A stretch of DNA of 64,000 nucleotides. Origin: an uncultured Nitrosomonas sp. Lineage in GTDB: Bacteria > Pseudomonadota > Gammaproteobacteria > Burkholderiales > Nitrosomonadaceae. Shown piece after piece: positions 36,961 through 43,702 of this stretch. The notes below the pieces were generated by a model. That model was not told where the DNA came from, ran no database searches, and saw nothing but the letters and a program-made list of their open reading frames with translations. Where the stretch lies: contig CAZKPL010000001.1 of NCBI GenBank assembly GCA_964554625.1, positions 10,876 through 74,875 on the forward strand. Direction: 5' to 3'. Position 1 is the first letter of the stretch. Every line of letters starts with the position of its first letter. The translations under genes were made by a program, and so were the position numbers.

Positions 36961-38169
36961 ATGAATGAAAATCATGATTACATAAAAGCTGATGACAGCG
37001 AGGCTCACAGCAAGATAGAACTCATCACCGAACTGCAAGCACATCGGATAGAATTAGAAACTCAAAACCGCAAGCTTAGGGATATGCAACAGCAATTGGA
37101 AGAAATGCGCAGTCACTATGCCGATCTCTATGAGAATGCTCCCGTAGGTTATCTTACGCTGAATAAAGCCGGGAACATTCTGGCAATCAATCTGACCGGA
37201 TCTGCCCTCCTCGGCAAGAAGCGCGCCTCCATTTTGAATAAATCTTTCTTAAGCTACATTATTCACGATGACAATTACAGGTTTCTTAACCACCTGCAGC
37301 AAACCTTTAATTCCTCCCATAACATTGTCACTGAGCTAAGAATCAAAGGAACTTCCAATAAGGTAATCCACATACGCATGGAAAGTTTGGTCACGAAAGA
37401 TACCGACACTTGCCGCACAGTAATGACCAATATTACCCCTGTTAAAGAAAAGAAATACCTCGACCAAGAATTGCTGAATGGAAGCCGCCGACTGATGCAG
37501 AACCTGTTCAAAATGCAGGAAGAAGAACGGCGCTTTCTTGCGCGAGAACTGCATGATGAATTAGGCCAATGGCTTACCGCCATTCACGCAGAAACGGAAA
37601 CGATCGCTTATTTCTCCGATCAAGATTCCACCACCCACACCAGCGCTCAAGCCATTAAACGATGCGTAAAAAAAATGCACGAAGTAATGCGCGATATGCT
37701 GCGCCAATTACGTCCTACGCTATTAGACACACTCGGGCTGGAAGACGCTTTACTTGAATTAAGAGAACAGTGGATCACACACAATCCCCATATTACCCTC
37801 AAACTCAAGTTCGAAGGCTCTCTGGATAAACTCAATGAACACACCAATATCACCATATTTCGCATTATTCAGGAAGCGCTCAATAATGTCCGCAATCATG
37901 CGCAAGCCACCCGGGTTCTCATTCGTTTGAATCGTAAAACTGGCGCAACCGCCGCAGAGGATGTCTTGTCGCTCAGCGTGAGCGACAATGGCAAGGGTTA
38001 CAATACCGATCAAACACCTAAAGGGCTGGGACTGCTAGGAATACGTGAACGGGCCATCGCCTCAGGCGGCAAATTTTTTGTTCGTAGCATTCCCAATCAT
38101 GGAACACAAATTCATGTCAAATTGCCACTTGACTCCTCAAACAGAAGGAGAAAGACGGACAACCTTTAA
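36961..38169 (+). CDS. Cytoplasmic PAS sensor histidine kinase, NarX/HisKA_3 class
   Basis: 402 aa with no TM segment. N-terminal coiled coil ELQAHRIELETQNRKLRDMQQQLEE feeds a PAS box LYENAPVGYLTLNKAGNILAINLTGSALLG. HisKA_3 H-box RFLARELHDELGQ. HATPase_c N and G boxes (EALNNVRNHA, DNGKGY, GLGLLGIRER). Confidence 0.9.
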   Translation: MNENHDYIKADDSEAHSKIELITELQAHRIELETQNRKLRDMQQQLEEMRSHYADLYENAPVGYLTLNKAGNILAINLTGSALLGKKRASILNKSFLSYIIHDDNYRFLNHLQQTFNSSHNIVTELRIKGTSNKVIHIRMESLVTKDTDTCRTVMTNITPVKEKKYLDQELLNGSRRLMQNLFKMQEEERRFLARELHDELGQWLTAIHAETETIAYFSDQDSTTHTSAQAIKRCVKKMHEVMRDMLRQLRPTLLDTLGLEDALLELREQWITHNPHITLKLKFEGSLDKLNEHTNITIFRIIQEALNNVRNHAQATRVLIRLNRKTGATAAEDVLSLSVSDNGKGYNTDQTPKGLGLLGIRERAIASGGKFFVRSIPNHGTQIHVKLPLDSSNRRRKTDNL

Positions 38170-38328
38170 CAAACAAGCTAAACGAATCAATCAAAGTGAT
38201 GTCAGTGACATGATCCTCTGCGGCATGCGTTGGTTTTGCGTTCCAAGACTCTAATTTTGGTTATCCTGGGAAAGAATCATCCACCTCACAAACATATCAC
38301 TTCCCGCCACCTATTTAATGATGCAATT

Positions 38329-38341
38329 AAGGAATTTCCTT
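38329..38341. promoter_or_regulatory. Perfect 6-1-6 palindrome AAGGAA-T-TTCCTT upstream of the LuxR-type regulator gene
   Basis: Read directly. It lies 180 nt upstream of the GTG start at 38522. A near-copy, AAAGAATTTCCCT, occurs at 39315-39327. Confidence 0.25.
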
Positions 38342-38521
38342 AGATCAAAATAAGCTCTACACTTATTCTATTACTTCGCCCAATGCCTCAGAATATATTG
38401 CAATGATTCAATTAAGAGTACTCGCAATGAGAAATACAGTGGCTCCGTTTAACCAAGCTCAACAGTAATACTGTTTAAAATTCGCGTTAGTTCTCACTGA
38501 AACAGCAGGAGGGTTCGAATT

Positions 38522-39178
38522 GTGAGACAAAAGCCAGTTACGGTGCTACTCATCGATGACCATCCGGTAGTACGCAATGGGTATCGCCGTCTACTTGAAA
38601 GCACCTCGGATATTCATGTCTTAGCCGATGCTGATAATGGAGAAACCGGCTGTAGCCTTTATCAAGAATATATGCCCGATGTGACCATTATTGATCTGAA
38701 TCTGGACAAACAAGGCATTGATGGCCTGGAAACCATTCATCGCATCAAAACAAAAAATCCGGCTGCGAATATTCTGGTATTCAGCATGCACAGCAATGAA
38801 ATCATGGTCCAGCGCGCGTTAAAGATGGGCGCAACAGGGTACATCACCAAGCAAAGCAACCTCGAGCAATTGCTAAAAGCAGTCCGCCAGGTGAGCCAGG
38901 GACGCGTGTATATTGATCCGGAATTGGCTTCAAATTTACTTACCGACAAAGTGCTCGGCAAATCCTCCGGAAATCCTTTGCATGTTCTTTCCAAGCGCGA
39001 ATTTCAGCTGTTTAAATTGCTGGCGGAGGGGAATTCAGTGGCACAAATTGCGGAAATGATTTCTATCAGCCCTAAGACTGTTGGCGTCCACCAGGCAAGC
39101 ATCATGAAGAAATTAAAATTACAGAACACCTCTCAGCTTGTGCGCCTCGCCATCAATTGCAAGGTTATTCAAGCGTAG
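38522..39178 (+). CDS. NarL/FixJ (LuxR-type HTH) response regulator
   Basis: 218 aa. GTG start 9 nt after AGGAGG. VLLIDDHPVVRNGY, IIDLNL, a receiver Lys region, and C-terminal LSKREFQLFKLLAEGNSVAQIAEMISISPKTVGVHQASIMKKL. Confidence 0.9.
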   Translation: MRQKPVTVLLIDDHPVVRNGYRRLLESTSDIHVLADADNGETGCSLYQEYMPDVTIIDLNLDKQGIDGLETIHRIKTKNPAANILVFSMHSNEIMVQRALKMGATGYITKQSNLEQLLKAVRQVSQGRVYIDPELASNLLTDKVLGKSSGNPLHVLSKREFQLFKLLAEGNSVAQIAEMISISPKTVGVHQASIMKKLKLQNTSQLVRLAINCKVIQA

Positions 39179-39455: not shown

Positions 39456-40454
39456 ATGAATCAATTCAGCAAAAAAATCATCGCTGCAAGCATCGTGTTT
39501 GCTTTTGGGGTAGCAGGTAATGCTTTGGCCAATCCAAGTATCACTGAGGGAGATACCAATCCTGCCGGTAGTGCAGATAATAGCGGCTCAACGGCCATAG
39601 ATAACAATGTGAATAAAACCGCTACCGCCAATAATGGTCAAACCGGTCCGGGCACGATCGCGAATGAGTATGGAACTGCAACCGATAGCTCCAATAACTC
39701 GGATAACTCCAATCACTCTGATAACTCTAATCACTCCGATAACAGCGCTAACAATTCTGTTAACGATAGCAACAATCCCGACAGCTCTGTCAACAACAGC
39801 AACAATACCGCCGATAGCAACAATCCCAACAGCTCTACCAACGACAGCAACAACACTGCCGATAGCGGCAATGATAACAGCTCTGCAAGCGCCAGCGCAC
39901 AAGGCTCAGCAGCAGCTAACGGCGCCAGCACTGCATCGGTAGACAACAGCGATAACAGCGATAATAGCGATAACAGCGATAACAGCCTCGCAGACGCCAG
40001 CGCGCAAGGCTCAGCAGCAGCTAACAATGGCGGCACTGCCACTGCATCGACTGATAACACCAATAACAGCGATAACAGCACCACAACCGCAAATGGCACA
40101 GGATCGGCAGCTGCCAATGGTGGCACTGCAACCTCCAATTATAGCGATAGCAGCGATCACAGCTCCACGACTGCGAGTGGTGCAGGAACGGCAGCCTCCA
40201 ACCATGGCGACGCAACCGCCACCTACTCAGTCAATAATTCAACACTGGAAGGCTCGGTTACCGGTGCGGGAGTCTCCACTGCTTTGGGTGATGCAGATAA
40301 CAGCAGCGCTAATACTATCACCGCCAGCAATAGCATAGACAATGCCTTCAATGGCGCTGCAGGCATCAACCAAGCCGTTCAGAATCACGGCGCCAATGCC
40401 TTGGCGCAACAGCAAGTGTCTTTCCAAGGCAACGTGAATGTCAACCCTCAATAA
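39456..40454 (+). CDS. Secreted Asn/Ser/Asp/Ala/Thr/Gly low-complexity repeat protein (candidate fibre or major subunit)
   Basis: 332 aa. AAGGAG RBS. Signal peptide KKIIAASIVFAFGVAGNALA-NPS. DNS/NHS/NNS tracts and four G(S/T)AA(A/S)N..G.(T)A(T) modules. C-terminal IDNAFNGAAGINQAVQNHGANALAQQQVSFQGNVNV. Almost no basic or large hydrophobic residues after the signal peptide. Confidence 0.85.
   Translation: MNQFSKKIIAASIVFAFGVAGNALANPSITEGDTNPAGSADNSGSTAIDNNVNKTATANNGQTGPGTIANEYGTATDSSNNSDNSNHSDNSNHSDNSANNSVNDSNNPDSSVNNSNNTADSNNPNSSTNDSNNTADSGNDNSSASASAQGSAAANGASTASVDNSDNSDNSDNSDNSLADASAQGSAAANNGGTATASTDNTNNSDNSTTTANGTGSAAANGGTATSNYSDSSDHSSTTASGAGTAASNHGDATATYSVNNSTLEGSVTGAGVSTALGDADNSSANTITASNSIDNAFNGAAGINQAVQNHGANALAQQQVSFQGNVNVNPQ
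39702..39737 (+). repeat. 18-nt in-frame tandem repeat x2 (DNSNHS)
   Basis: gataactccaatcactct / gataactctaatcactcc, with 2 differences. Confidence 0.9.
39768..39863 (+). repeat. 48-nt in-frame tandem repeat x2 (SNNPDSSVNNSNNTAD / SNNPNSSTNDSNNTAD)
   Basis: Two adjacent 48-nt units differing at 6 positions, by my alignment. Confidence 0.9.
39891..40080 (+). repeat. Direct repeat with 105-nt period (ASAQGSAAAN...DNSDNS module)
   Basis: gccagcgcacaaggctcagcagcagctaac at 39891 recurs as gccagcgcgcaaggctcagcagcagctaac at 39996. The downstream parts have diverged. Confidence 0.8.
39942..39986 (+). repeat. 9-nt in-frame tandem repeat x5 (DNS)5
   Basis: gacaacagc gataacagc gataatagc gataacagc gataacagc. 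Confidence 0.95.
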
Positions 40455-40495
40455 CTAGAGTTGTAAGCAGCATTACAGTGCTTTAGTGAGAGAGA

Positions 40496-40529
40496 GGATG
40501 CCGGTGAACAGCAACCGTCGCCGGCATCC
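40496..40529 (+). promoter_or_regulatory. Intercistronic stem-loop after the repeat-protein gene (candidate attenuator or mRNA-stabilising hairpin)
   Basis: GGATGCCGG(TG)-loop-(CG)CCGGCATCC. 9 perfect bp, extendable to 11 with one G-U. No T-tract follows. It lies 42 nt after the stop and 31 nt before the next start. Confidence 0.45.
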
Positions 40530-40559
40530 TGAAAGAAATGAACGAAGGGGGTTATTAAG

Positions 40560-40922
40560 ATGGTTTCATTTATAAAAAGCAGCCTGCTTCTTCTGTTTGT
40601 TTTGACATTGCCTATTCATGCAGCCAAGGCATCTTCCAGCCAATCTGACGATGCATTACCTTTTTCATTGGCTGAAGCCGTGTCCGCTGATGAACTTGAA
40701 GAGGCACGAGGCCGGGAAGGCATTGATATCACCACGCTAAATAACATGAATGTGCAAGCTACCTTAACGGGCAATGTAGCAAACAACAGCCTTACTGGAA
40801 CGAACATTATCGATCATGGCGCATTTGCTGGCTCTGGCGGCATGTTTTCCGTGATTCAAAATAGCGGCAACAACGTGATTATTCAGGATTCCACTATCGT
40901 GAATGTAACCATAGTCCCCTAA
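40560..40922 (+). CDS. Small secreted protein with a C-terminal VIQNSGNNVIIQ module (candidate minor subunit or nucleator)
   Basis: 120 aa. Signal peptide LLLLFVLTLPIHAAKA, then SADELEEARGREG, then NIIDHGAFAGSGGMFSVIQNSGNNVIIQDSTIVNVTIVP. Confidence 0.75.
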   Translation: MVSFIKSSLLLLFVLTLPIHAAKASSSQSDDALPFSLAEAVSADELEEARGREGIDITTLNNMNVQATLTGNVANNSLTGTNIIDHGAFAGSGGMFSVIQNSGNNVIIQDSTIVNVTIVP

Positions 40923-40936
40923 TACCGATATTTTAA

Positions 40937-41671
40937 ATGCTCATTCAAATATTCAATCCCGATATGAAACCTCTCTTCGCCCGCTGCGTTGCACTTATTC
41001 TATCCGCATTTTGCAGCGCCGCTGGCGCTGGTTCACTTGACCTGAATGGCATCGCAGGCGGAGGAAACTACAATGTCTCAGTAAAGAGTTTCGCGGAAAT
41101 GAAGTTCAGTACTGTTTATAAACAACAGTATGATTTCAGCTGTGGTTCGGCAGCATTAGCGAGTCTGCTTACTTTTCATTATGGCGACGGCGTGAATGAG
41201 CAAAGTGTATTCATGGAGATGTTTCAACATGGCGAGCAGGAGAAGATCAAGAAGCTGGGCTTCTCCTTACTGGATATGAAAAAGTATCTGGAAAGGCGAG
41301 GCTACCGGTCCGATGGGTTCAAGATCAGTTTAGATCAGCTCGTGGCCGCTAACAGTCCTGCCATTACCATTATCAACGCAAATGGCTATTTACATTTCGT
41401 GATTATCAAAGGCATTACTGCGCAGCGTGTTTTGGTGGGTGATCCAGCTAAAGGTGTCCATATTGTCCCGCGCGACGAATTTGAAGCAATGTGGGAAAAG
41501 CGCATCCTGTTTTTAATCCATGCGGATCAAGGCATCGGCACGGGAAATTTTCAGGATCAGAAGGAGTGGTCCGCCCGCCTGGCGCCGCTGGGGGATGCCA
41601 TTGATCGAAGCAGTCTGGCTGAATACCATGTTTTGATACGCGGGCAGGTGCCGGGTCCTTTTGATTTCTAA
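40937..41671 (+). CDS. Periplasmic C39-family cysteine peptidase (FapD-like)
   Basis: 244 aa. Signal peptide KPLFARCVALILSAFCSAAGA. Oxyanion Gln and nucleophile Cys in YKQQYDFSCGSAALASLL. GFSLLDMKKYL. His in NGYLHFVIIKG. Asp in VLVGDPAKG. No ABC transporter domain is attached. Confidence 0.85.
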   Translation: MLIQIFNPDMKPLFARCVALILSAFCSAAGAGSLDLNGIAGGGNYNVSVKSFAEMKFSTVYKQQYDFSCGSAALASLLTFHYGDGVNEQSVFMEMFQHGEQEKIKKLGFSLLDMKKYLERRGYRSDGFKISLDQLVAANSPAITIINANGYLHFVIIKGITAQRVLVGDPAKGVHIVPRDEFEAMWEKRILFLIHADQGIGTGNFQDQKEWSARLAPLGDAIDRSSLAEYHVLIRGQVPGPFDF

Positions 41672-41691
41672 TTTATTGCTGGATATTAAAC

Positions 41692-42195
41692 ATGAACACT
41701 TATAAATTAGACTTTCCCCAGAAAAACTCCAAGCGCTTATCTCTATTCATCGCTCTCGTATGCCTGATCATTGCCTGTCACGCATCTGCAGACGAATCAC
41801 CCACCAGATCTGAATCTGACTCTATTGATGTCTATGACAACTGGCCCCGGGCGACTGATGGTGAACTAGCGCAACAAAGAGGCGGGTTTATGCTCCCCAA
41901 TGGAGTAACGATAGATTTCAGCTTTGAAAGAATTATTTCATTGAATGGCGTGGAAACCTTTTCTTCCCTCTTGCAATTCCCCGAAAATGGCTTGGTATTG
42001 CAAAATGGCAGCCACAATCTGGCATCAGATTTAGCCGTCTCAGGTTTAGGTCATGTCATTCAAAATAATTTAGATAATCAAGTAATCAAGACTATCAATG
42101 AAATTAACATTGAGATCGGTAACCTGCAGAATATTGGGTTACATAATAGCCATGGTCATGGCAGCATGAATATGATCTTACCCGTTCTACACTAA
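41692..42195 (+). CDS. Small secreted protein with a double-glycine-like motif and VIQNNLDNQVIK module (FapE-position protein)
   Basis: 167 aa. Signal peptide LSLFIALVCLIIACHASA, TDGELAQQRGG-F, then SDLAVSGLGHVIQNNLDNQVIKTINEINIEI. Confidence 0.75.
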   Translation: MNTYKLDFPQKNSKRLSLFIALVCLIIACHASADESPTRSESDSIDVYDNWPRATDGELAQQRGGFMLPNGVTIDFSFERIISLNGVETFSSLLQFPENGLVLQNGSHNLASDLAVSGLGHVIQNNLDNQVIKTINEINIEIGNLQNIGLHNSHGHGSMNMILPVLH

Positions 42196-42397
42196 TCATC
42201 TTTAAGTTGTTAGATACCCTCAAGCGGATATAAAATCTTTCCGGCAAGGCTGCATGCATAGCAAAAAATTTTCGTTATAAGCATGCTCTCCTCAAAATAC
42301 AGAGCAGAACTTGCTCTAATCTTCTGGTTGCAGCATTCTCATCGGGTTTTATAATGACTTCCCTCATAGGCAAGAAGCACTGTCAACTTAATCAAAA

Positions 42398-43702
42398 ATG
42401 AATAAAAAATATTGTCACACGCTTTGTTTTTGGAATGGAATAACCCGATGCTTTGTTTTTATCGCATGTCTTTTTTTCATAAATGGAAGCTATGCTGAAA
42501 CAAGCAAACCTGCAGATTCATTAGAGCACTACCGGCAGCTTCTTGTTGAGCAGGAGAAAAAATTTGAAAGACAGCGCCAATTACTTGAAGAACAAGGCAA
42601 GGAACTGGAACGCTTAAGAAAACACCTTGATGCACTATCCAAACAATCTCCTGCTCCATCAAATCAGCCAAAGCCATCAGCACCAACCAATACCGCAGCC
42701 AAGCAAAAAGAAGACACACCAAGAGCGTCGCCGAATCAGATACCGTCGGGACCAGTCGGCCAGGCTCCTCCTGAGTCAAAAGAACCAGCGAGACCTCCAG
42801 AAATGCCCAGGCTAAGTGAAACGGTAGGGGGTGTTTTAACCAAAAAAGGCAACATTATTGTTGAACCGGCCATGGCATATTCTTATTCTGACAACAACCG
42901 CGTATTTCTGGATGCTTTTACTTTTATACCGGCAATTGCGGTCGGTCTCATCGATATCCGTGATATTACCCGGCACAGTCTTTTTGCCAGCCTTGGGTTA
43001 CGCTATGGCGCAACTAATCGTCTGGAATTGGAAGCCAGGGTTCCTTATGTATACCGTGCCGATATCCAGCGTTCCCGTCCTGTTAGCATCGGCTCCAGCA
43101 TTAATGAAACATTCGACGCAAGCGGAAATAATATCGGTGATGTCGAGCTGACAGCCCGTTATCAGCTCACCGATGGTTCGGGCGGCTGGCCTATTTTGGT
43201 GGGTAATATGGTCACAACGATACCCACAGGAACCAGTCCCTTTGATATCAAATTTGTTGAATCACAAGAAGTACCCGGCGCCATGTTCCCAACAGAAGCT
43301 CCGACAGGATCAGGTTTTTTCAGTTTCCAGCCAAGTGTTACCGCACTTTATCCAACCGATCCAGCCGTATTCTTCAGCAACATCCAATACACCTATACCA
43401 TGGAAACTGATGGGAATGCAGGCAAGATCGACCCGGGCGACGCAGTAGGCATGACTTTTGGTATGGGATTTAACATTAATGAACGATCCTCCTTTAACCT
43501 GGGATACTCTCATAGACATTTTTTTAATACACGGGTAAATGGCGATAAAATCGGCGGTTCTGCACTGGATATTGGACAAGTGTTATTGGGTTACGCATTC
43601 AGATATTCCCAACGAGTCAATTTTAATTTATCCATCGGAATCGGCGCGACCGACAATGCACAAGATGCAACCATTACCTTCAGGGCACCGATAACCTTTT
43701 AA
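42398..43702 (+). CDS. Outer-membrane beta-barrel protein with N-terminal coiled coil and Pro-rich linker (FapF-like architecture)
   Basis: 434 aa. Signal peptide to SYA-ETS. Heptad-rich LEHYRQLLVEQEKKFERQRQLLEEQGKELERLRKHLDAL. Linker of about 55 aa rich in P/S/A/Q. Then alternating-polarity strands ending ITFRAPITF, with a terminal aromatic residue. Confidence 0.85.
   Translation: MNKKYCHTLCFWNGITRCFVFIACLFFINGSYAETSKPADSLEHYRQLLVEQEKKFERQRQLLEEQGKELERLRKHLDALSKQSPAPSNQPKPSAPTNTAAKQKEDTPRASPNQIPSGPVGQAPPESKEPARPPEMPRLSETVGGVLTKKGNIIVEPAMAYSYSDNNRVFLDAFTFIPAIAVGLIDIRDITRHSLFASLGLRYGATNRLELEARVPYVYRADIQRSRPVSIGSSINETFDASGNNIGDVELTARYQLTDGSGGWPILVGNMVTTIPTGTSPFDIKFVESQEVPGAMFPTEAPTGSGFFSFQPSVTALYPTDPAVFFSNIQYTYTMETDGNAGKIDPGDAVGMTFGMGFNINERSSFNLGYSHRHFFNTRVNGDKIGGSALDIGQVLLGYAFRYSQRVNFNLSIGIGATDNAQDATITFRAPITF

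Follow-up and report, generated by a model that had tools for sequence, protein, structure and literature searches.

What is the Asn/Gln-rich module that recurs in the secreted proteins of a Nitrosomonas gene cluster, and what might it do? The cluster lies in a 64,000-nucleotide stretch of DNA, called the window here, from an uncultured Nitrosomonas sp. (contig CAZKPL010000001.1). Five co-directional genes on the forward strand, at 39456-43702, encode a protein of 332 residues (p332), one of 120 residues (p120), a C39 peptidase (244 aa), a protein of 167 residues (p167) and an outer-membrane protein (434 aa). A Sec-type signal peptide can be read directly from the sequence at the start of all five. 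An earlier interpretation of the letters (the sequence-only reading) had proposed that p332, p120 and p167 share a C-terminal module. Two roles were offered: a recognition signal for the outer-membrane barrel, or a segment through which minor subunits template the major one. On balance, we think it probable that the module is a divergent, single-copy form of the Fap imperfect repeat. The window would then encode a one-repeat relative of Fap, in which the module stacks and templates as a cross-beta layer.

The three strings quoted in support of a common module are present in the open reading frames (ORFs). They occupy residues 293-323 of p332 (from 40332), 82-116 of p120 and 112-142 of p167 (the span ends at 42126). 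For p332 and p120, BLASTP gave E=1e-4 over 62 columns. In Smith-Waterman alignments against composition-matched shuffles, the score was equalled by 1 of 2000 shuffles of the mature proteins and by none of 2000 for the quoted segments. Family profiles for hhalign were built from the 80 related genome loci, these being the best 80. The p332 and p120 profiles aligned with E=3e-9 over 48 columns; the score was 45.6, compared with 11 +/- 2.4 (maximum 18) for 60 column shuffles. True homology of the p332 and p120 modules is thereby confirmed at the sequence level.

For p120 and p167, BLASTP of the single sequences gave E=0.023. Shuffles did as well in 148 of 2000 cases for the mature proteins and in 8 of 2000 for hand-picked segments. 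Module-only hhalign gave E=2e-7 to 6e-6, and none of 60 column shuffles matched the score. This likeness is confirmed only at the profile level. The p332 and p167 proteins yielded no BLASTP match on the motif, and 225-592 of 2000 sequence shuffles equalled the real score, like chance. The hhalign comparison of this pair was not significant (E=0.05-0.3, with 4-17 of 60 shuffles equal in score). Since p120 matches both p332 and p167, and these do not match each other, p120 is the hub. Hence, the claim of a module common to three proteins stands for p332 with p120, and in profiles for p120 with p167, but not for p332 with p167. Significance against composition-matched shuffles was likewise found for the first pair but not for the last, nor for mature p120 and p167.

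The module is about 60-75 residues long. In p120 it covers residues 58-120 (40731..40919; TTLNNMNVQATLTGNVANNSLTGTNIIDHGAFAGSGGMFSVIQNSGNNVIIQDSTIVNVTIVP), as delimited by hhalign and a module hidden Markov model (HMM). In p332 it covers residues of about 256-332 (40227..40451 for residues ~258-332). Here, according to hhalign, the family alignment consensus and the module HMM, it reads YSVNNSTLEGSVTG, a variable loop and NSIDNAFNGAAGINQAVQNHGANALAQQQVSFQGNVNVNPQ. The alignment of about 35 residues noticed earlier between p332 and p120 is thus real but falls short of the full extent. The p167 segment, found by module-only hhalign against p120, corresponds to the second half of the module only (residues 117-145, 42040..42126; SGLGHVIQNNLDNQVIKTINEINIEIGNL). 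It is internal, ending 25 residues before the end of the protein. None of 56 family sequences departs from N125, D128 or Q130 in this half-module, and at least 90% keep Q124. The expectation that every cargo protein ends in the module therefore applies to p332 and p120; p167 carries a half-module at best. In four loci from uncultured Gammaproteobacteria (L060, L061, L062 and L069), the large-subunit module contains N-V-V-D-N-G-A-F-A-G-A-S-G-L-N-Q-N-V-Q-N-N-G-A-N-S-L. This form is intermediate between the p120 and p332 types and illustrates their shared origin.

The two module-bearing proteins differ in layout. The p120 ORF (40560..40922) encodes a small subunit composed of a signal peptide, a leader and one module. 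The p332 ORF (39456..40454) encodes a FapC-like variable cargo. Behind its signal peptide come a short conserved stretch near the N-terminus, a low-complexity region rich in N/S/A/T/D and, at the C-terminus, one module. Between signal peptide and module, p332 is 21% N, 21% S, 16% A, 12% T and 10% D. We compared its N-terminal part (window 39456-40226) with the counterparts in L002, L003, L007, L029, L033, L043 and L057. After the signal peptide, p332-type proteins keep the segment W-A-N-P-T-N-T-A ... A-N-E-[YF]-S-T-A-T-D, and a hypervariable NSDNS-type low-complexity region follows. This segment could be a separate export signal. Several genomes have two p332-type genes in tandem.

The module is strongly conserved and widely distributed. 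Close homologues of p120 number 138, from Nitrosomonas and Methylobacter, and every one is annotated as hypothetical. The nearest genome is that of Nitrosomonas sp. Nm132, whose p120 is 92% identical. In the family alignment, p120 residues 97-112 do not vary between Nitrosomonas and Methylobacter, and close homologues share the C-terminus S-V-I-Q-N-[ST]-G-N-N-V-x-I-Q-D-S-T. The motif VIQN[ST]GNNV[ILV]IQ[DN][SA]T is kept across 145 diverse p120-type representatives. Scanning one genome per species gave 530 p120 relatives, in Nitrosomonas, Methylobacter, Methylomicrobium, Methylomonas, Neptunomonas, Psychromonas, Colwellia, Paraglaciecola and other genera. A profile search of 1.84 billion representative proteins (clusters at 50% identity) returned 1271 matches with E<1e-3, of which 795 had E<1e-10. 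With few exceptions these proteins have 100-180 aa, and the match extends to the C-terminus. Ten distant relatives, looked up as cluster members, were either nameless or called 'hypothetical protein'.

Within the 80 loci, the module HMM was run over every ORF. It matched only p332-type (86) and p120-type (80) proteins. Each of these has exactly one module, at most 12 residues from the C-terminus (166 of 166). The p332-type proteins have lengths of 133-690 aa and are conserved over the last ~75 residues only; no other region of either family is as conserved as the module. A six-frame HMM scan found no further copy within the window. The order of genes is p332-type gene or genes, p120, C39, p167 and barrel. 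Exceptions are contigs that end early and genera in which the barrel gene has moved or flipped. In all complete loci the p167 gene lies between the C39 and barrel genes, and the same five-gene arrangement surrounds two distant p167 relatives. It is kept across Beta- and Gammaproteobacteria.

What moves in the cluster is the barrel gene; cargo, p120, C39 and p167 form a fixed core. The barrel gene lies upstream in Neptunomonas, and such loci are L042, L046, L050, L054 and L055. It is on the opposite strand in L047, L063, L065-L068, L070, L071, L075-L077, L079 and L080. An inverted downstream barrel occurs mainly in loci of Colwellia, Psychromonas, Paraglaciecola and Kineobactrum. A second, far more divergent pair of C39 and barrel genes lies directly upstream of the cluster in an unclassified gammaproteobacterial metagenome-assembled genome (MAG; L016:3081-5136) and in a Methylobacter MAG (L031:2904-4950). 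Compared with the window proteins, the C39 of this pair gives E~1e-26 and the barrel E~1e-15. The pair may be a paralogous export system.

What kind of machinery accompanies the module? The FapC sequence was taken from PDB entries 9u4u and 9nqd. With FapC, 80 genuine fap operons were fetched from metagenomes, and FapA to FapF were extracted. The C39 peptidase gene (40937..41671) encodes a predicted periplasmic cysteine peptidase with a signal peptide and the motifs DFSCGSAAL, LHFVII and GDP; DFSCG and LHFV were compared with FapD of L081. The protein matches Pfam Peptidase_C39 (3e-19) and two NCBIfam models equally. These are FapD (1e-36, 126 bits against a cut-off of 330) and FilB (1e-36, 127 bits against a cut-off of 475). 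Double-glycine protease domains in the PDB, those of PCAT1 and its relatives, matched with E=3e-6. FapD from genuine fap operons matched with phmmer E~1e-32. The outer-membrane protein (42398..43702) aligns with positions 8-420 of the 420 in NCBIfam FapF (E=2e-40). Because its 139 bits are far under the equivalog cut-off of 700, it is a FapF homologue and not an equivalog. Residues 144-433 match the FapF structures 5O65 and 5O67 (E=3e-25). Before the barrel are an N-terminal coiled-coil, with heptads read directly at residues ~40-90, and a Pro-rich linker.

The p167 ORF (41692..42195) encodes a signal peptide, a leader, a central domain and the half-module. We class it as FapE-like from its gene position, NCBIfam FapE and hhalign. 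The NCBIfam FapE model matches 10 of 56 p167 family members (best E=2.2e-5), p167 of the window not being among them. Comparison of p167 with FapE by hhalign gave E=7.9e-6 for full proteins and, without the signal peptide, E=1.3e-6 on the N-terminal motif. The common motif is D-x-E-L-x-x-L-R-G-(G/R)-[FY]-x-x-P. Searching a database of 5.8 billion proteins with the p167 family profile found close relatives only and no named FapE. The FapE model also had no match in ten distant p167 homologues, a set of members ill-chosen for locating the region. Together, the alignments show homology of the C39 peptidase to FapD, of p167 to FapE and of the barrel to FapF; by the same alignments the cluster is a divergent Fap-like system. 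No FapA homologue was found in the cluster, as hhalign gave E>0.08 and on signal peptides only. A role for p120 as a FapA-like chaperone was rejected, since hhalign aligns signal peptides only. We also rejected p120 as a bacteriocin: between genera its mature region hardly varies, in contrast to bacteriocins.

A further link between p120, p167 and FapE lies close to the N-terminus. Following the signal peptide, each has a leader-like motif: A-D-E-L-E-E-A-R-G-R-E-G in p120, T-D-G-E-L-A-Q-Q-R-G-G-F in p167 and A-E-L-A-E-L-R-G-R-F in a genuine FapE (L081:7417-8166). In p120 the double-glycine-leader-like motif spans residues 43-54 (40686..40721; ADELEEARGREG) and was recognised by family conservation and hhalign. 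In p167 it spans residues 55-66 (41854..41889; TDGELAQQRGGF). Double-glycine leaders end in G-G at the site of cleavage and are further marked by E(-8), L(-7) and a hydrophobic position -4. The p167 leader agrees in E(-8), L(-7) and the G-G at -2/-1; the p120 leader of the window reads E-L-x-x-x-R-G-R.

The leaders are conserved within each family. For p120, the family alignment has E45, L46 and G54 invariant, with G51 and R52 at least 90% conserved. In the 56 p167 sequences, L59, R63, G65 and F66 never vary, G64 is kept in at least 90%, and the family leader reads D-x-E-L-D-x-L-R-G-G-F. With signal peptides removed, hhalign gave E=1.8e-6 for p120 with p167, E=1.3e-6 for p167 with FapE and E=6.6e-4 for p120 with FapE; none of 50 shuffles matched in any case. 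Thus p120 and p167, taken before to be unrelated outside the module, also have an N-terminal E-L-x-x-x-R-G motif in common. Among 145 diverse p120 relatives, L-x3-R-G occurs in 108, followed by G in 48 of these and by R in 18. The p332 protein has no leader motif; its own N-terminal segment, N-P-T-N-T-A ... A-N-E-[YF], is found instead. We regard [DE]-E-L-x-x-x-R-G-(G/R) as a candidate cleavage site for the C39 peptidase. The substrate of FapD has been stated as unknown, with FapE suspected (PMC5557850, PMC6173800).

Is the module itself related to the Fap repeat? The published minimal repeat is G-X4-N-X3-G-X6-N, in full X15-G-X4-N-X3-G-X6-N-X7 (PMC3792158). Its spacing is kept in both proteins, as G94-x4-I-x3-G103-x6-D in p120 and G-x4-V-x3-G-x6-Q in p332. 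We compared the module, with its two families combined, with 120 repeats of FapB and FapC. They aligned exactly in the Fap register (hhalign E=6e-3, 1 of 100 shuffles). Against a profile of the whole Fap repeat layer, the p120 module gave E=1.2e-3 (0 of 60 shuffles) and the p332 module E=1.4e-2 (3 of 60 shuffles). Each of the three FapB repeats also gave a weak match to the p120 module HMM. Invariant p120 residues N82, G94 and G103 align with FapC N62, G75 and G84, the numbering being checked on PDB 9u4u. In FapC, N62 and G84 are reported to be essential for fibril formation and G75 to modify it (PMC12822426). Cryo-EM of FapC identified each imperfect repeat as one Greek-key cross-beta layer of about 52-62 residues and five short strands (PMC12392863). 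The module has the same size as this layer.

Tandem arrays provide a bridge. An ORF of 1500 aa (P0307) and a neighbouring ORF of 556 aa (L161:8248-14503) carry at least 25 tandem modules with a period of about 75-85 residues. The profile of these tandem repeats matches the module with E=8e-8 and the Fap repeats with E=3e-4, in each case with 0 of 60 shuffles. The 556-aa protein has a precomputed match to Pfam PF27129 FapBC; the match of the 1500-aa protein is only faint. Such tandem arrays speak for the module as a stacking unit. There is no C39 peptidase or barrel within 10 kb of this pair. Hence, the suggestion that module matches always lie beside C39 and barrel genes agrees with the 80 loci but not with the tandem pair. 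Neither of the two ORFs has an obvious signal peptide, and IS110 and IS630 transposase genes adjoin them. They may be one interrupted gene.

These alignments make it likely, but do not prove, that the module belongs to the Fap-repeat superfamily. Several observations weigh against its being a Fap repeat. Direct similarity between module and Fap repeat is weak, with E between 1e-3 and 1e-2. Both Asn residues of the Fap motif are replaced, by I99 and D110 in p120 and by V and Q in p332. NCBIfam models of the FapB/FapC type did not match the cargo proteins, and precomputed Pfam PF27129 FapBC had no match on p332 or p120. Our local Pfam copy predates PF27129, and genuine FapB and FapC also get no match there. 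Profile searches of the PDB, run with alignments of the p120 and p332 C-termini, gave no meaningful match (E<=10) and recovered neither FapC nor CsgA. The p167 half-module is not significantly like the C-terminus of FapE (E=0.13, 8 of 50 shuffles), nor like p332. Co-variation by position between the p120 and p332 modules of the 80 loci gave lineage-confounded patterns only. The strict position of the module at the C-terminus is unexplained by a pure core-repeat role. Finally, none of the cluster proteins is annotated.

If the module is nonetheless a single Fap layer, as we think probable, the cluster could work as follows. In the periplasm, the C39 peptidase would trim p120 and p167 at the leader E-L-x-x-x-R-G-(G/R). 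Unfolded subunits would then be exported by the FapF-like barrel as a trimer. Outside the cell, modules of different molecules would stack in register to form a cross-beta fibre. As one module would supply one layer, fibres would need stacking of modules from separate molecules. Beyond its leader, p120 consists of the module alone, and so suits the role of nucleator or minimal subunit, like FapB or CsgB. The p167 protein would be a cell-proximal adaptor, like FapE or CsgF, and its half-module would template the first layer. The p332 protein would be the bulk subunit and would show its hypervariable N/S/D/T-rich N-terminal region on the outside of the fibre. FapC carries three repeats in cis, said to be critical for stable stacking. 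We also entertain, tentatively and with some doubt, a more specific version in which layers are supplied in trans. Here, the fibre would be a co-assembly of two or three different single-layer subunits, through the modules of p332, p120 and p167. The C-terminal layer may double as a handle for the FapF-like pore, and activation would depend on cleavage by C39 of the double-glycine-like leader that FapE and p120 have in common.

The other role first offered for the module was that of an export signal, and the two can be set against each other. A C-terminal signal might be read by the barrel, its coiled-coil or the C39 peptidase, possibly besides a structural role. The position of the module suits this idea: there is one per protein, always within 12 residues of the C-terminus (166 of 166 in 80 loci), and the match also runs to the protein end in ~145 diverse small homologues. 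Module-bearing genes were always beside a C39/barrel pair in these loci. Furthermore, a variable N-terminal passenger, a conserved C-terminal tag and an adjoining peptidase recall known sorting-signal systems. However, p120 after its leader is essentially only the module, a signal without cargo, and is therefore hard to square with a pure address tag. The 25 or more internal tandem copies in a protein pair far from any C39 or barrel gene point the same way, as does the partial and internal p167 segment. The N-terminal double-glycine-like leader is a better candidate for targeting and processing. FapB ends on its third repeat, yet this repeat is not considered a signal. The one characterised signal for amyloid secretion, that of curli, consists of 22 residues at the N-terminus of CsgA and is no C-terminal beta-signal. 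Hence, the curli precedent invoked by the sequence-only reading is weak. We consider an export signal unlikely. These points count against it as the sole role, and the module may also act in both ways. Of the two roles, templating or nucleation is favoured by the Fap-like machinery, the repeat spacing, the weak but repeated in-register matches to Fap repeats and the tandem copies; for barrel recognition speaks the strict C-terminal position.

Two further explanations do without an amyloid altogether. The module could be a small, autonomously folding domain rich in beta-structure, part of a surface protein that is no amyloid, for instance an adhesin or a beta-helix cap. In that case p120 would be a soluble secreted factor and not a fibre subunit. 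Indeed, the tandem-repeat protein could equally be a beta-helical adhesin, and the N/S/D-rich region of p332 resembles adhesin stalks. Against such a domain, AlphaFold2 found no confident fold for p120 (31-sequence alignment; pLDDT 47, pTM 0.17) or for five tandem P0307 modules (single sequence; pLDDT 38). Such poor models are compatible with a fold that depends on assembly but have no diagnostic value. The cluster machinery has its homologue in the exporter of Fap amyloid, through which chains pass unfolded (PMC5557850), and the module resembles Fap repeats in register. On these grounds an autonomous domain seems improbable. Compositional chance between Asn/Gln-rich segments is more improbable still. 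It would account for p332 and p167, indistinguishable from shuffles, and for p120 and p167 as single sequences (148 of 2000). Conversely, p332 and p120 pass composition-matched shuffles (1 and 0 of 2000) and column shuffles (0 of 60), p120 and p167 pass at the profile level (0 of 60), and the module is the most conserved region in both families across 80 genomes. As judged by these statistics, chance is refuted for p332 with p120 and for p120 with p167, and stands for the direct comparison of p332 with p167 only.

Directly upstream of the cluster (36961..39178, forward strand), Pfam identifies a PAS/HisKA_3 sensor kinase and a LuxR-type response regulator. These may regulate the cluster. Both adjoin it in only 4 of 80 loci, all of Nitrosomonas type (L001, L005, L007 and L029; L029 is labelled uncultured betaproteobacterium). 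L008 has a LuxR-type regulator without the kinase. Because the pair adjoins only four of 80 loci, regulation of the cluster appears lineage-specific.

Fap has been described as evolutionarily 'fixed', with exactly three repeats and canonical synteny (PMC12822426). Homologous D/E/F machinery with single-repeat cargo, missed by current Fap models, would challenge that view. Our search of the literature on Fap in Nitrosomonas and on FapF- and FapD-like systems found no description of this cluster. Hence, a single-repeat Fap-related cluster with its cargo genes and module identified from sequence is likely previously undescribed. The motif E-L-x-x-L-R-G-(G/R), common to FapE, p167 and p120, offers a concrete candidate for the FapD cleavage site, undetermined according to PMC6173800 and PMC5557850. 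If fibres are formed, the diversity of functional amyloids widens to ecologically central biofilm formers. These are Nitrosomonas, of wastewater nitrification, the methanotrophs Methylobacter and Methylomicrobium, and Colwellia, Psychromonas and Paraglaciecola. Such fibres would also provide a natural model, with one layer per subunit, for why imperfect repeats matter. If layers are in fact supplied in trans, the cluster would represent a second widespread Fap-type amyloid architecture in nitrifiers, methanotrophs and marine psychrophiles.

How does the cluster compare with known systems? Bacteriocin ABC exporters of the PCAT type share the C39 fold and the catalytic Cys/His motifs, and the p167 leader fits their classical consensus. 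However, the peptidase here stands alone in the periplasm, the leader comes after a Sec signal peptide instead of at the protein start, and the second Gly is usually Arg in p120 and FapE. With the putative Fil pilus of Acinetobacter, the cluster shares the pairing of C39 with a FapF-like barrel, and the peptidase scores equally on FilB and FapD. The barrel tells the systems apart, matching FilC with 9e-11 (42 bits, cut-off 630) and FapF with 2e-40. Furthermore, p332, p120 and p167 have no match in any NCBIfam model, or in Pfam. The logic of curli is similar: a major subunit and a minor nucleator with a common Gln/Asn/Gly-rich strand-turn repeat ending at the C-terminus, a dedicated outer-membrane channel and an anchoring adaptor. 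The parts differ. No homologues of CsgE, CsgF or CsgG are present (no curli match in Pfam or NCBIfam), and the transporter fold is different. CsgA has several repeats of 19-23 residues, not one module of ~60 residues, and PDB profile searches gave no CsgA match.

Fap differs from the cluster in several respects. There is one repeat per subunit here (166 proteins, 80 loci), where Fap almost universally has three (PMC12822426, PMC12392863). Both signature Asn are replaced, and NCBIfam and Pfam FapBC do not recognise the cargo. The order is large subunit, small subunit, D, E and F, compared with fap(A)BCDEF, and FapA is missing. A FapE-type leader is carried by p120 but not by FapB, and matches to FapD, FapE and FapF are all far below curated cut-offs. 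Conversely, both systems combine a C39 peptidase of the periplasm with a FapE-like protein bearing the common motif, and both have a FapF-like barrel preceded by a coiled-coil. FapF is 12-stranded with a periplasmic coiled-coil, and the cluster barrel is homologous over the full length. All proteins are Sec-dependent and the D-E-F gene order is kept. Both systems have one large variable and one small subunit with a common Asn/Gln/Gly-rich repeat and G-x4-X-x3-G-x6-X spacing. Colocalised pairs of fapD and fapF homologues outside fap operons were noted in 2018, without cargo or a common module (PMC6173800). The cluster described here is probably one of those pairs.

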